From the NCBI GenBank assembly GCA_045587445.1, contig JAZNCH010000053.1:13978-77977 (forward strand): a DNA stretch of 64,000 nt, in the 5' to 3' direction. Each line of letters starts with the position of its first letter. Position 1 is the stretch's first letter. Origin of the DNA: Eubacteriales bacterium (GTDB lineage: Bacteria > Bacillota > Clostridia > Oscillospirales > CAG-272). Below, piece after piece: positions 36,913-42,390 of the stretch. Below the pieces are notes generated by a model. It was not told the origin of the DNA. It made no database searches and worked only from the letters and a program-made list of their open reading frames with translations. The translations under genes and the position numbers were made by a program.

Positions 36913-38904
36913 TTAAAGTGTAGCGAGATATGCATTCCACTCTGCTACAGTGTAGGTAGTGCCATTGTAAACAATTGCATCAACGGTTGCACCGTCCTCA
37001 ATAACGAGTTTTGCAAGTCTCGTCGCATTGGCAGACGAAGTACCATAGTCAACGTTAATAGTTCGGATATGAGTTCCTGCTTTGATAGTTATATTGCCAT
37101 TGATGGGAGCAACATAGATTGTATCAATCTTTGCACCTTCAATGGTAACAATAGAGTGGCTCCAGCAGTAAACGCTGCCGTATTCACCACCGTTAACGGT
37201 GGTAGTGGTACCGTTTACAAAGCCTGCATCAACTGCCATAGCACCATCGATCATAGCGGTAGTGCCTGTCATAACACAATTATTCAAGGTTGCGTTGCCG
37301 TAATGAGCAAATCCGCAAGCAAGAGTTTTGCCCTTATCACCGTTTGCAAGCGTTGAAACAAGATCCTTTACAACGAGGTTATTAGCAACGTAGTTACCGC
37401 CTCCAATATTATAGTGTCCCATCTCAACGAAGCCTTCACCTGTAATGGTGACGTCACTTACGGTTACATCCTCCCCTGCAGGAGGAACAAATGCAACATA
37501 ACCGTGGTTTCCAATGGAAGGATCGGCTCCTTTGTTAGTAATGGTTTTGCCATTACCGTCAAAATTGATGGCAGCATTGGACTCCATGATCATCTGCTTT
37601 TCAGGAGCGGTATTGTTGTAAACGATATCCTCAGTAATGGAGATGTTGCCACCCTCAGTTGCACCGATGAAAGCCTCGGCAGAAGATAAAATCTTTGAGC
37701 AGTTTACCATTTCGAGCTGTGCACCGTTTACCGCCTCAACGCCCTCCGAGTATACATCCGTGTGATTTGCATTTGATGTGTCGTATGTACAATTTTCAAG
37801 ATACAAATCTACATAGGAACGGATTAGAGCATATGTGCCGTTGCCGTACAAAGCGGAATCGTAAAAGCTAACGCTGTTCAGAGTGGATCCAAAGGAGTTC
37901 CAGCCGTATAATGTGCAGTTCTTGAAGATCACATCGCCGGCTCCGTTGTCAAAATGAATGGAATAAGCACCGGTGTTGGTGAAAGTACAGTTCTCAAAAA
38001 TTACAGTACCGTCTACGCCATTACCGTAGCTTCTACCATTGACATTGGCGTTGCTGATAGTAATGGTAGTGCCTGCGGGAACCATCGCTTTTGTAAGGCC
38101 GTAATTTAAGTTGATGCTGTTATCCATAAAATTAAATTCAGTAATGCCATCTGCAAGAGCTTCCTTCATTTCATCCAATGAAGTAACTGAAGCGTACTTA
38201 TCATACTGATTGCCAAAACTGTCACTTTCGTTGGTATACTGTGTTGCAAGAATATTAATTCCGAAGTTAATTTCGGGGATATTCACACCATTATGGTTTG
38301 CTTCATTACCAACAGTTTCGGGCATATCAACCTTGATTGCTACATACTGCGTTACGCCGGCAAGCAAATGTTTGCCAACGGAAAGCACATTACCTTGCTT
38401 GAAAGCAACGGGAGAGGAATATGCGATGCCATTTTCAGAAGCAAATGCTTCTTCAATTGATTTCTCGGCAATATTCAAGCCAAAGACGGGATCGACACCT
38501 GCATCTTCAAAGGTAAGGGTACTTACGGTCAAAATATCTGAAAGAACAATGTTATTGCCGTCATTGGTCTTACCGATAGTTTCGTCAATAATGTTCATAT
38601 TGGCAACATATTTAAGTGCCAATGAACCGTTGTTCTTTACACGAAGAACAACAACTTCGGTATGTCCGGGTTCCCAAAGACCTTTCTGGAACAGCTTATC
38701 TGCACCGTCAAGTGGGGTCCAAGTTTTGCCGTCGAGTGTATATTCAACAACAAGATCAAGGTTTCCGGATTTAATAACGTTACTTCCGGAGGTAACGCTG
38801 TCTGTAAACCAAGCGTATGTGCTGCCAATCAGCATAGATACACACATAAGGAGTGCCAGTGCACTCATAAGCAAAGCACGCTTGGTTGACTTTTTCTTTG
38901 TCAT
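36913..38904 (-). CDS. Large TasA-like subunit: SipW-type signal peptide, TasA-like N-domain, C-terminal parallel beta-helix domain
   Basis: 663 aa. GSTYAWFTDSVTSGSNVIKSGNLDLVVEY, LWEPGHTEVVVLRVKNNGSLALKY, ILATQYT. The C-terminus has repeated xNCT(F/L/Y) rungs (FENCTFTN, FKNCTLYG, LENCTYDT, NNCVMTG). Confidence 0.8.
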   Translation of the reverse strand: MTKKKSTKRALLMSALALLMCVSMLIGSTYAWFTDSVTSGSNVIKSGNLDLVVEYTLDGKTWTPLDGADKLFQKGLWEPGHTEVVVLRVKNNGSLALKYVANMNIIDETIGKTNDGNNIVLSDILTVSTLTFEDAGVDPVFGLNIAEKSIEEAFASENGIAYSSPVAFKQGNVLSVGKHLLAGVTQYVAIKVDMPETVGNEANHNGVNIPEINFGINILATQYTNESDSFGNQYDKYASVTSLDEMKEALADGITEFNFMDNSINLNYGLTKAMVPAGTTITISNANVNGRSYGNGVDGTVIFENCTFTNTGAYSIHFDNGAGDVIFKNCTLYGWNSFGSTLNSVSFYDSALYGNGTYALIRSYVDLYLENCTYDTSNANHTDVYSEGVEAVNGAQLEMVNCSKILSSAEAFIGATEGGNISITEDIVYNNTAPEKQMIMESNAAINFDGNGKTITNKGADPSIGNHGYVAFVPPAGEDVTVSDVTITGEGFVEMGHYNIGGGNYVANNLVVKDLVSTLANGDKGKTLACGFAHYGNATLNNCVMTGTTAMIDGAMAVDAGFVNGTTTTVNGGEYGSVYCWSHSIVTIEGAKIDTIYVAPINGNITIKAGTHIRTINVDYGTSSANATRLAKLVIEDGATVDAIVYNGTTYTVAEWNAYLATL

Positions 38905-38993
38905 TGTTTAATGACCTCCTATTAGATTTTGTCGGCGGAAATGTTTTCTGCAATACGTTTTACGCCGACAAACGATTACAGATTTAGTTTAAT

Positions 38994-40511: not shown

Positions 40512-40545
40512 ACGGACTTAATATGAACAAGACAAAACTCTAAAA

Positions 40546-42390
40546 TTATTTGTTGTTATAGATAACGTTTACGCCTACATGGGTTGCAGTTCCGTAGGTG
40601 CAGTAACGATCACCGGTTTCTCCACCATAAAGCTGATCGAAAATAATCAGTTCATTATGCTTCTCGCCATCGTTATGCGTATGGTTCTCGTCCACAACTT
40701 CATTGCCGTTAGCATCGGCGGGATGGCCGTATCTTGGGTTTGAGTATGCACCGGTGCTGGTGCCTGCCTCAACACGTACCCAAGGATAACTTTCAGCCTT
40801 AAACTGACAATAATGGTAATTTGCCCAATTACCGTATATAACGGTCACATTCTCACATGTAAGATTGGGAGCAATCGCATTACCAACATTATTACCGTCA
40901 GGATCATCTACCTGACCGGAATCGCCGATCAACATACCGCTTCTACGGTAGGAATACCATTCATAAGCAGAAGTAACGTCGTTGAAAGCATCAATTCTGC
41001 AAGCAACTGTACTGTCCTTTATCAGAATATTAGCACTGGTGCTAACACCACCGATAACACCGCCATTTGCATTGTTAAATTCGCCCCACTGAGCACCAAT
41101 CGTGGTGGAAGCCTCTATAACGCAGTTAATAAACTGCTCATCACCACCTGCCCAGCCGACAATTCCGCCGGCATAGTATTGGTAGTCTGCAACTTCGGAG
41201 TTAGTGACCTTGATATTTTCAAAAGTTACATTATCACCTGCAACAGCAGCAATCGTCCCGCAAAGAGCAGACTCGCCGGAAATACTAGCATTGTCCATAA
41301 CAAGATTCTTAATAGTCGCATTTTCAACAGCACCAAACAAACCCAGACCTAAATCACCGTAGTAATAGCCGTTGTCGAGTGCCCAAGTGTTTTGGCTCAT
41401 ATTGGCGATAGTGTGATTCTGTCCGTCGAAGACTCCCTCAAAAATCTTGTCGTTTCTATAGGAACCAATAGGATCAAAGCAGGTAGGATCGGTTGCGCCA
41501 TCTGCCAGATGGTACAGATCTATATCCACACCTAACTTGATGGTCTTGCCAGCGAAGGTATTACCGCCATCAACTAATTCTGCAAGACCTGCTAGCTGCT
41601 CTGCAGTGGTAATCACAAACTCAGTATCGGTGTCGTTATACCAAGAGGTGACTGTAGTACCGTCCCAGGTATCAGGTAATTCGGGGTATGTAGCGTCCTT
41701 GTCGTAATTATTACCAAAACTATCGCTTTCATAGGTAAACTGAGTTGCAAGTACATTAATACCAAATTCGATGGAAGGAATATTCACGCCGTTATGGTTA
41801 GCTTCATTTCCAACAGTTTCATCCATATCAACTTTAACGATTAAATAGTGTTCTATACCGGGAGCAAGTTCAACATCTTCGCGAAGAACATTGCCGGATT
41901 TGAATGAAGATGTATACTCGTAACCAACCTTATTCTCGCCTCCAAAAGCAAGAGCGAGTGTAATATCGCCTATGCCCCAATCGTCATTAGCCTGCTGAAC
42001 GAGAGTGCTTACGGTAAGAATATCGGAAAGAACAATTTTCGCACCGTCCTTAGTCTCACCAACAACTTCTTTCAGAATGTTCATATTAGCAACATATTTC
42101 AGAGCCAATGAACCATTGTTCTTGACACGAAGAGCAACGACCTCGGTGTGTCCGGGTTCCCAAAGACCTTTTTTGAACAGATCGTCTGCACCGTCAAGGT
42201 TGTTCCAAGTTTTTCCGTCGAGCGTGTACTCAACAACAAGATCTAAGTTTCCGGATTTAATAACGTTGCTGCCGGACGTAACGCTGTCTGTAAACCAAGC
42301 GTATGTACTACCAATAAGCATTGATACGCACATCAGCAAGGACAAGGCACTCAACAGCAAAGCACGCTTGGTAGATTTTTTCTTTGTCAT
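40546..42390 (-). CDS. Large TasA-like subunit: SipW-type signal peptide, TasA-like N-domain, C-terminal GLUG-like beta-helix domain
   Basis: Start moved to ATG 42390 (GGAGG SD). The N-terminal about 235 aa are nearly identical to 36913-38904. The C-terminus has Gly-rich repeats (GLFGAVENATIKNL, GGIVGWAGG, GGVIGGVS). Confidence 0.8.
   Translation of the reverse strand: MTKKKSTKRALLLSALSLLMCVSMLIGSTYAWFTDSVTSGSNVIKSGNLDLVVEYTLDGKTWNNLDGADDLFKKGLWEPGHTEVVALRVKNNGSLALKYVANMNILKEVVGETKDGAKIVLSDILTVSTLVQQANDDWGIGDITLALAFGGENKVGYEYTSSFKSGNVLREDVELAPGIEHYLIVKVDMDETVGNEANHNGVNIPSIEFGINVLATQFTYESDSFGNNYDKDATYPELPDTWDGTTVTSWYNDTDTEFVITTAEQLAGLAELVDGGNTFAGKTIKLGVDIDLYHLADGATDPTCFDPIGSYRNDKIFEGVFDGQNHTIANMSQNTWALDNGYYYGDLGLGLFGAVENATIKNLVMDNASISGESALCGTIAAVAGDNVTFENIKVTNSEVADYQYYAGGIVGWAGGDEQFINCVIEASTTIGAQWGEFNNANGGVIGGVSTSANILIKDSTVACRIDAFNDVTSAYEWYSYRRSGMLIGDSGQVDDPDGNNVGNAIAPNLTCENVTVIYGNWANYHYCQFKAESYPWVRVEAGTSTGAYSNPRYGHPADANGNEVVDENHTHNDGEKHNELIIFDQLYGGETGDRYCTYGTATHVGVNVIYNNK

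Follow-up and report, generated by a model that had tools for sequence, protein, structure and literature searches.

Two large genes in the window analysed here, a 64-kb stretch of DNA from a Eubacteriales bacterium, raise the question of why two proteins of one operon should begin alike and end in different domains. The proteins have 663 and 614 amino acids (aa); their common N-terminal region is called the N-module below, and their C-terminal regions are called the heads. An earlier interpretation made from the letters alone (the sequence-only reading) saw in them a constant polymerisation module joined to variable display modules, and proposed recombination between the two N-module sequences as a possible mechanism of variation. 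The account that is considered probable here is that the two genes are occupants of two cassette slots in a SipW/TasA fibre operon, that the N-module plugs into the fibre while the heads are displayed, and that heads have been swapped over evolution. Coordinates are positions within the window, gene sizes follow the list of open reading frames (ORFs), and the whole fibre locus lies on the minus strand. The parts of the two genes are as follows.

36913..38904, minus strand: 663-aa gene, whole; ORF confirmed at this position
38197..38904, minus strand: N-module of the 663-aa gene (aa 1-236), ending in ESDSFGNQYDK; PF12389, TIGR04088, Foldseek match 8aur_A
37705..38196, minus strand: head part C1 of the 663-aa gene (aa 237-400), right-handed beta-helix with NCT rungs according to the model and weak Foldseek matches
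36913..37704, minus strand: head part C2 of the 663-aa gene (aa 401-663), second beta-solenoid sub-domain; occurs independently in locus L025
40546..42390, minus strand: 614-aa gene, whole; ORF confirmed at this position
41695..42390, minus strand: N-module of the 614-aa gene (aa 1-232), ending in ESDSFGNNYDK; PF12389, TIGR04088, Foldseek match 8aur_A
40546..41694, minus strand: head of the 614-aa gene (aa 233-614), solenoid like GLUG and IgA1-protease N-domains, with a His/Asp/Cys-rich C-terminal part

The positions, lengths and strand first assigned to both ORFs hold. Both genes are complete and each has its own ribosome-binding site.

The shared module and the two heads

By its sequence, signal peptide, genomic context and fold alike, the N-module is a member of the TasA family. 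The 663-aa and 614-aa proteins score 26.5 and 25.3 bits against PF12389 (Peptidase_M73; cut-off 22.5), with a match spanning profile positions 3-130 of 196, and 25.8 and 23.6 bits against the SipW-dependent signal peptide TIGR04088 (cut-off 19). AlphaFold models built on homologue alignments have a mean predicted local distance difference test (pLDDT) value of 87.4 and 82.7, respectively. In Foldseek comparisons, both N-modules match the TasA fibre 8aur_A with probability 1.0 (E 7.9e-4 for the 663-aa and 1.6e-4 for the 614-aa protein; target template modelling (TM) score 0.40-0.42 for both) and the archaeal bundling pilin AbpA (7ueg) with probability 0.99. The parts of the module, as seen in the 614-aa protein, are a SipW-type signal peptide, a putative donor strand and a TasA-like jellyroll. 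TasA inserts its mature N-terminus (residues 28-38) as a donor strand into the next subunit (PMC9674648). At the equivalent position, WFTDSVTSGSNVIKSGNLDL of the window proteins aligns by inspection with TasA AFNDIKSKDATFASGTLDL. The pLDDT falls below 50 at residues 29-44 (663 aa) and 25-43 (614 aa), after the predicted SipW cleavage site, as expected of an unpaired donor strand. This donor-strand-like N-terminus is the most conserved part of the proteins, with 79-96% identity over all compared cassettes, and the models are consistent with its being a putative donor strand for a neighbouring subunit.

Between the two window proteins, BLASTP aligns residues 1-245 with residues 1-240 at 71% identity (E 2e-103), with no second high-scoring segment pair at E <1. 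The amino-acid identity is 96% in aa 1-52, 83% in aa 53-130, 32% in aa 131-185 and 78% in aa 186-236. The modules had been described as near-identical with few substitutions, which is true of parts of the module only. Likewise, the direct repeats of 0.7 kb reported to lie 3.5 kb apart are on the same strand with a start-to-start spacing of 3486 nt, but they consist of two blocks and not of one repeat. Block 1 (38516-38933 against 42002-42417) is 83% identical over 418 nt, including ~29 nt 5' of the ATG, block 2 (38188-38334 against 41689-41835) is 77.5% identical over 147 nt, and the ~180 nt separating them are unalignable. The longest exact shared run is 29 nt; the identical DNA strings quoted in the sequence-only reading are exact and are present solely at 38761/42247 and 38792/42278. 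The alignable region stops abruptly past ESDSFGNxYDK, as the sequence-only reading had noted.

The first 130 codons have a synonymous divergence (dS, Nei-Gojobori) of 0.69, against 2.6 for codons 131-185 and 1.9 for codons 186-232, dS being saturated past codon 130; dN in the conserved parts of the module is 0.09-0.14. The repeat is thus genuine and far above chance expectation, but old and not near-identical. Among 248 aligned modules, the two window copies are mutual nearest relatives in aa 1-130 (88%; next 80-82%), rank 47th and 95th in aa 131-185, and 5th and 30th in aa 186-236. Over the whole module they are 72.5% identical to each other, and the best outside match is 76% for the 614-aa gene and 71% for the 663-aa gene. 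Of 106 genes in related loci, just 25 have their nearest module within their own locus. The mutual nearest relationship in aa 1-130, together with the lower dS there, argues for an old within-genome exchange of the 5' part and not for a recent duplication.

The sequence-only reading had guessed a parallel beta-helix for one head and a GLUG-like domain for the other. Both guesses agree with the structure models in the Foldseek check, the beta-helix scores being weak, and the NCT rungs and GGIVG/GGVIG motifs were found in the respective heads. The C1 part of the 663-aa head is modelled with pLDDT >90 as stacked short strands. Beta-helix enzymes and phage tailspikes lead its Foldseek list, with weak scores (6k0p, E 2.4e-4, TM 0.13-0.15). 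Residues 237-663 gave no Pfam hit at E up to 0.01, including PF13229 (Beta_helix), and the homologues P0156, P0174 and P0203 of this head do carry PF13229. C1 is 88-92% identical in L081, L084 and L001 and is present on other cassette proteins too. C2 is 79-83% identical in orthologues and 71% identical to the end of a 739-aa protein of L025 that has no C1. Since C1 and C2 occur independently, the 663-aa head consists of two separable sub-domains (~240-400 and ~400-663). This head is also 41-45% identical over 91-97% of its length to the C-termini of Bacteroidaceae lipoproteins (P0209, P0213-P0216), the N-terminal part of which is DUF6562 (PF20200); by this match, it stands on a different surface-protein scaffold in another phylum.

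The 614-aa head matches 3n6z, a putative IgA1-protease domain (Foldseek E 2.9e-5, probability 1.0, target TM 0.46), and the IgA1 protease of G. haemolysans (7uvk, E 1.7e-4). Against PF05342 it scores 17.8 bits (E 0.0021), under the cut-off of 27.7. A motif scan found no HExxH or HxxEH in either large protein; the 614-aa protein is therefore not an IgA1 protease, and shares just the non-catalytic GLUG-type domain. It has 1125 head homologues, including one 90% identical in L082. A sequence search of the Protein Data Bank with both heads returned nothing under E 0.4. The C-terminal ~100 aa of the 614-aa protein (40546-40850) have D559, D567, H570, H572, H578, D585, C528 and C464 invariant across 61 homologues, and this cluster, in a part modelled at lower confidence, suggests a metal-binding site. 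P0287 (572 aa) bears a GLUG-type head (71% identity) on a divergent SipW-type N-module and comes from a metagenome-assembled genome (MAG) of a Candidatus Methanomethylophilaceae archaeon; the archaeal placement is either mis-binning or transfer between domains of life. The two heads had been called unrelated to each other. At the BLAST level they are, but hhalign finds a weak match between them (75% probability, E 2.4e-5) over 106 columns of solenoid rungs.

Heads and modules in related loci

The architecture of one constant module with variable heads is found family-wide. An exhaustive N-module search of 1.84 billion cluster representatives gave 6,093 matches at E <=0.001 and 1,209 at E <=1e-30. 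In all of the best 149 matches the module is at residue 1, and 139 of these 149 proteins exceed 400 aa (median 592, maximum 1,328 aa). Local alignments of family members to the window proteins end mostly at residues 230-259, which is the joint, and the joint carries the conserved motif ATQxTxExDSFxNxYDK. A scan of one genome per species gave 75 related loci, all from gut or rumen Oscillospiraceae, Clostridia or Eubacteriales MAGs. According to a hidden Markov model (HMM) scan of their ORFs, many of them have two to six tandem genes with the N-module and a C-extension (450-2,015 aa). Other C-terminal cassettes on the same N-module, for which the sequence-only reading had advised a survey of homologous loci, are numerous: 124 cassette genes in the 75 loci bear at least 96 non-redundant C-regions, as counted by greedy 50%/70% clustering. 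Single-linkage clustering fused 122 of 132 C-regions because the heads themselves are mosaics of shared sub-domains. Pfam domains among the C-regions include BspA-type leucine-rich repeats (LRR_5, 9), Beta_helix (9), M26_N (5), Glug (3) and Pectate_lyase_5 (3), as well as pentapeptide repeats, SASA, Flg_new, Big_3 and Hint, and the majority have no match. The idea of a constant module with a variable display module is thus strongly supported as an architecture, with 96 C-regions on one N-module class and heads uncoupled from modules; polymerisation would be the presumed role of the module.

Heads and N-modules do not travel together. Proteins with heads 90-93% identical to the 614-aa head have N-modules just ~42% identical, and where the head is 81-86% identical to that of the 663-aa protein, N-module identity is 36-67%. 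The GLUG-type head is also found on other SipW-type N-module classes, and in P0267 and P0126 the middle-segment variants of the module are swapped relative to the head type. The two-slot layout of the window recurs in four other genomes, slot 1 lying between sipW-1 with its small ORF and sipW-2, and slot 2 being the interval between the genes for the 230-aa and 189-aa small subunits. The slots are occupied as follows.

L081: slot 1, 447 aa; slot 2, 662 aa
L082/L083: slot 1, 594 aa; slot 2, 668 aa
L084: slot 1, 732 aa; slot 2, 659 aa
L080 (GCA_045658315.1): slot 1, outside the contig; slot 2, 704 aa

Compared with these genomes, the window has heads 79-92%, N-modules 42-64% and core genes mostly 41-84% identical, with one core gene above this range (T230 in L082, 90%). 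The slot-1 protein of L082 has a head 90% identical to the window 614-aa head, whereas its N-module is 85, 37, 19 and 34% identical over the four segments given above. The same N-module is 88, 84, 59 and 72% identical to that of its own slot-2 neighbour.

The replacement of a whole cassette is seen in L080. Its DNA is 86.5% identical to that of the window from sipW-2 into the slot-2 gene, and 87.6% identical from just 5' of the 189-aa gene onward. Between these matching flanks lie ~2 kb with an unrelated 704-aa gene. Upstream, 90-97% of the nucleotides are identical, and within the gene the first ~130 nt still reach 83-87% before identity collapses. The homologous stretch ends ~130-160 nt into the slot-2 gene and resumes in a two-hairpin element that follows the gene and is described below, at the 3' arm of its second hairpin (P2). 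This difference is a gene replacement with breakpoints away from the DSF..YDK joint.

The explanation that is judged probable can be set out as follows. Each large protein would have a SipW-cleaved signal peptide, a donor strand with a jellyroll acceptor domain, and then a beta-solenoid head. Through its N-module the protein would be built into a fibre assembled by donor-strand exchange, or be added to its end; a 219-aa subunit of this class that has no head would be a further component of the fibre, and the other small subunits would anchor it. The heads would point outward from the cell and serve in adhesion or in the binding of glycans. Common descent, purifying selection and one old homogenisation of the first ~390 nt would account for the likeness of the two N-modules. 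Head genes would be replaced via crossovers in the first ~130-160 nt and in the following two-hairpin element, and N-modules and heads would be re-joined at the DSF..YDK joint on an evolutionary time scale. Several points weigh against this explanation. TasA residues 239-261, at the C-terminus, form an inter-subunit interface in the fibre (PMC9674648), so a bulky C-terminal head may allow terminal incorporation only, or none. The head functions are read from the fold, and the beta-helix matches are poor (2.4e-4, TM ~0.15). Constraint on the codons for the signal peptide and for translation initiation, and not gene conversion, could be part of the reason for the low dS at the 5' end. Finally, the N-modules of one locus match each other in the window and L082 but not in L081 and L084, so a requirement for matched modules is not general.

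Other explanations were weighed against the same data. The TasA/camelysin-like module could serve monomeric enzymes or adhesins for SipW-dependent export and folding, or for binding to the wall or matrix; this seems unlikely, though it accounts for several facts. The camelysin family was first described as proteases, not fibres (PMC9245690), the heads are similar to beta-helix enzymes that act on carbohydrates and to the N-domain of IgA1 protease, one relative has a SASA esterase domain on its cassette, and a C-terminal head could clash with the C-terminal interface of TasA fibres. It fits less well that the donor-strand-like N-terminus, which the monomer models leave without structure, is conserved more than any other part (79-96%), that the operon of the window and of many relatives also encodes a subunit of this class without a head and several other small TasA-like subunits, that the HEXXH scan found no catalytic motif in the large proteins, and that most heads are adhesin-type repeats. 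A quite improbable alternative is that the genes are two old paralogues under purifying selection without any gene conversion, the apparent shuffling reflecting slow heads and fast N-modules. The first 130 and last 50 module residues are indeed conserved across genomes too (72% mean column identity in 11 modules), and over the whole module the window copies are about equally close to each other (72.5%) and to the best outside matches (76% and 71%). Rate differences, however, cannot yield the mosaic ranking among the 248 modules (rank 1 in aa 1-130; 47 and 95 in aa 131-185), the middle-segment variants swapped relative to head type, or the replacement in slot 2, which is unalignable between genomes with ~87% identical flanks. 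Nor would they place the 614-type head on two N-module subtypes (~35% identical), each matching the partner in its own genome.

The idea that the ~0.7-kb direct repeats are a RecA-type substrate, giving a deletion, a chimeric subunit and reversible or population-level variation, is very improbable and is not supported as a working mechanism. The repeats are direct, on the same strand and 3486 nt apart; the lower dS and mutual nearest relationship in the first 130 codons indicate that exchange between the copies happened at some time, and N-module/head combinations vary among genomes. Yet identities of 83 and 77.5%, a longest exact run of 29 nt, an unalignable central 180 nt and a dS of at least 0.69 even in the best-matching segment make the repeats too diverged and too interrupted for efficient homologous crossover. 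Inside the genes, no long near-identical repeats or recombination sites such as programmed variation uses were found, and no tyrosine-recombinase homologue is encoded in the 64-kb window. The deletion of sipW-2 and the 230-aa gene foreseen by the sequence-only reading is not borne out: the window retains both, as do three of the four other two-slot loci (L081, L082/L083 and L080, the contig of which begins inside sipW-2), L084 having other genes there, and neither the deletion nor a chimeric junction of the predicted kind was seen in related loci. The variation of the genes that was observed is the replacement of whole cassettes between species, with breakpoints that lie elsewhere in the one close relative (L080), and the two genes, each complete with its own ribosome-binding site, are not an expressed/silent pair.

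The operon, its promoter and the two-hairpin element

The SipW/TasA-type operon spans ~11 kb, from ~44.9 kb down to 33.4 kb. Besides the two large genes, it has the following features, listed in the order of transcription.

44851..44879, minus strand: promoter at the operon head, TTGACA-17-TATAAT, sigma-70-type consensus; hexamers match 12/12
44420..44614, minus strand: 64-aa small ORF with CxxC...CxxC, 5' of the TetR gene; 62-77% identity in L068, L082/L083 and L084
43638..44225, minus strand: TetR-family regulator, first long gene; PF00440, 27 bits (cut-off 24); position kept in relatives
42868..43644, minus strand: SipW-1, archaeal-type signal peptidase I; TIGR02228, 70.4 bits (cut-off 51.85); NF046067, 83 bits
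42605..42835, minus strand: 76-aa ORF with a single transmembrane segment, after sipW-1; 39-55% identity at the same position in 14 related loci
42501..42585, minus strand: two-hairpin element copy 1, upstream of the 614-aa gene; covariance model R1, 73.1 bits, E 1.5e-14
40436..40520, minus strand: two-hairpin element copy 2, between the 614-aa gene and sipW-2; R1, 72.9 bits, E 1.7e-14
39780..40412, minus strand: SipW-2, second signal peptidase I; TIGR02228, 85.5 bits (cut-off 51.85)
38994..39686, minus strand: 230-aa BsaA/TasA-like small subunit with an N-module of a different class; TIGR04088, 24.6 bits; TIGR04090 and PF12389 weak
36662..36870, minus strand: two-hairpin element copy 3, after the 663-aa gene; minimum free energy -81.3 kcal/mol, z -9.0
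36066..36635, minus strand: 189-aa BsaA/TasA-like small subunit; TIGR04090, 31 bits, weak; 93% identical in L080
35385..36050, minus strand: 221-aa secreted protein with C-terminal PPQTG, transmembrane segment and basic tail by motif scan; kept in relatives
34697..35356, minus strand: 219-aa bare, head-less subunit of the same N-module class as the large proteins; N-module HMM, 117 bits
33700..34656, minus strand: 318-aa TasA-like subunit with a SipW-type N-terminus and a Ser/Thr/Pro-rich tail; homologues close the locus in relatives
33450..33707, minus strand: 85-aa CxxC protein at the far end of the locus; kept in relatives

The start of the 189-aa gene was set to the ATG at 36635 by comparison with L080, the mechanical ORF beginning at 36671. 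In most relatives of two-slot or canonical type (L047, L056, L065, L001 and L080-L082), the 230-aa gene follows sipW-2 and precedes the first slot-2 cassette. The 219-aa subunit has an orthologue of ~215 aa in the equivalent position in many loci and is a candidate major or partner subunit. The PPQTG protein is a candidate wall anchor of the sortase-substrate type; the motif scan found no sortase TLxTC motif encoded across the 64-kb window. The 76-aa transmembrane ORF may be a SipW accessory protein. The two zinc-ribbon-like CxxC...CxxC ORFs (64 and 85 aa), both conserved in relatives, bracket the operon and might bind nucleic acid. Just beyond the operon, a 634-aa gene on the plus strand (31058-32962), between the genes for a 134-aa membrane protein and an acetyltransferase, lacks a counterpart at the syntenic site of L080 (6957-8118), which marks an indel.

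The fixed consensus promoter of the window stands in place of a probably invertible segment found in relatives. In ~33 related loci, a tyrosine recombinase gene of ~280-aa or ~374-aa type lies just 5' of the TetR-SipW operon (L065 5211-6370, L082 6262-7485, L011 1150-2305, L056 2719-3927, L084 1158-2423 and ~28 more), and in every recombinase-linked locus examined it is followed by a segment of ~240-300 bp between inverted CATAAnnnnnnTTATG sites. The site pattern matches in 27 of 84 loci, ~24 of them as inverted pairs. To judge by these sites, the bounded segment is likely an invertible promoter conferring phase variation; the recombinase is paired with this promoter-type inverton and not with the cassette genes. 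The CATAAnnnnnnTTATG sites occur nowhere in the window, and an inverton there was ruled out, the search giving only weak inverted repeats of 16-17 nt with 76-81% identity and no CATAA..TTATG sites.

A 76-nt repeat flanks the 614-aa gene (42576-42501 and 40511-40436, 88% identical), with a third copy after the 663-aa gene. It is an element of two adjacent hairpins, P1 and P2. P1 is G+C-rich, has ~9 bp and is highly variable in sequence, with at least seven pairs in 73 of 77 copies, 45 different arms and UUCG as the commonest loop. As it is too variable for MAFFT and RNAalifold, it was assessed by folding each copy separately. P2 has 19 bp with a conserved base, GGCAAUCAAAGG / CCUUUUGAUUGCC, and shows compensatory changes in 17 of 19 pairs. 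A covariance model found 75 sense-strand copies in 1.15 Mb of related loci (for example L014 2741-2825, L065 12035-12120 and L047 7621-7700) and no copy in the window outside the fibre operon. The start of 63 of the 75 copies is a median of 11 nt past the stop codon of a cassette gene, and 62 of 121 cassette genes with enough downstream sequence have the element. Five copies in relatives follow sipW and not a cassette gene, and copy 1 of the window follows the 76-aa ORF. Copy 2 folds with a minimum free energy of -41.6 kcal/mol (z -7.55). Copy 3 has compensatory changes in P1 and a structured insert of ~140 nt in apical P2, and P1 and the P2 base still close. This insert (36700-36816) is an inverted repeat with arms at 36693-36737 and 36772-36816 and resembles an insert at the equivalent position in L038 (~6990-7050), a different insert being shared by L005, L016 and L028; by their positions, these look like small recurrent inserts targeting the element.

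Rfam has no match to the element; the lone hit, DPB (E 0.082), is below gathering and lies within a coding region. An intrinsic terminator was ruled out, as the element has no U-tract behind it, and so was a TetR operator, as the arm spacing varies (inserts >100 nt) and one position has a G-U pair in 40 of 51 sequences. A role as RNA is favoured by the abundance of G-U pairs and by the orientation, which is strictly sense. One possibility is RNase III-type processing at P2 that would leave P1 as a protective 3' end, and the element is a candidate new cis-acting RNA for processing or stability, or a candidate cassette joint. A bolder proposal is an integron-like adhesin cassette system on TasA-type fibres, with the element as a recombination joint for insertion and exchange, besides or instead of a signal for mRNA processing and stability. 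A head gene would then travel between a signal-peptide/donor-strand block of ~150 nt and the two-hairpin element past its stop codon, bringing dozens of heads onto one scaffold. Copies 1 and 2 of the window have an identical P1 stem, with one base different in the loop, and in this the upstream copy is unlike the corresponding element in relatives; such identical stems flanking the 614-aa gene are what a single-crossover insertion would leave. In the L080 comparison, the 3' breakpoint is marked by a P1 that differs with the cassette and a P2 whose 3' arm is common to both, and in L082 the 3' untranslated region and P1 accompany the 614-type head; both observations favour the proposal. The G-U pairs and the sense orientation fit a role as RNA at least as well, no recombinase acting on the element is known to us, and an integron-like system is given a low probability here.

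Relation to known fibre systems

In the literature searched, fibres of the TasA superfamily are described as made of subunits with a single domain, together with accessory proteins. The TasA-type donor-strand fibres known so far, mainly from Bacillus and a few archaea, are plain matrix scaffolds of this kind. The closest counterpart is the tapA-sipW-tasA locus of Bacillus subtilis, in which, as in the window, a SipW peptidase adjoins TIGR04088-type substrates and small subunits are co-operonic. The jellyroll of the window proteins matches the TasA fibre structure (8AUR), and the mature N-terminus resembles its donor strand. TasA, however, is a single-domain protein of 261 aa, whereas each window module bears a head of 380-430 aa, and the heads of relatives reach ~1,800 aa. 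The window further differs from B. subtilis in its two signal peptidases, its TasA-like genes (at least six, of at least three classes), its sortase-type protein, and a TetR regulator in place of SinR control. The host is a gut anaerobe of the Oscillospiraceae/Clostridia by its closest relatives.

Among clostridia, the sipW-bsaA-bsaB-bsaC locus of C. perfringens (TIGR04090) is likewise a SipW-dependent polymer locus with small paralogous subunits (PMC7395162; PMC11580942); the reports found make no mention, in title or abstract, of subunits with heads or of cassettes at this locus. The 230-aa and 189-aa proteins of the window score 26-31 bits against the BsaA family, far under the cut-off of 60. 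In archaeal Tat-fimbriae, which belong to the TasA superfamily, TafC (NJ7G_2827) has been proposed as a tip protein with one shared and one unique outer domain (PMC12337348). The subunits of those fimbriae use the Tat pathway, while those of the window are of SipW type and several alternative head genes are in tandem. The literature searches turned up no account of large display domains on bacterial TasA-like modules, of head cassettes in tandem or of the two-hairpin element, and exchangeable heads on TasA-type subunits are apparently an undescribed way of decorating such fibres.

The fimS element of E. coli with FimB/FimE and the invertons of gut bacteria are invertible promoters with an adjacent tyrosine recombinase. 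Relatives of the window are alike in having a recombinase and inverted sites, and their inverton should switch the whole operon on or off; the window is without both and has a fixed promoter. FimH of chaperone-usher type 1 pili resembles the proposed system in having one pilin-type domain for strand complementation and a second, exposed one for binding. Its lectin domain is N-terminal and it needs a chaperone and an usher, whereas the head of the window proteins is C-terminal. The window offers concrete objects, namely two confidently modelled heads, a fixed fusion joint, a cassette slot with natural replacements and a new conserved RNA or DNA motif at the boundaries, and the joint is of practical interest for engineered fibres that display chosen domains. 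If the heads are built into fibres, the system would be a modular display platform of abundant, mostly uncultured gut and rumen Clostridia. It would present many alternative adhesin-like or glycan-binding domains, and would be a Gram-positive, chaperone-free counterpart of tip-adhesin pili.

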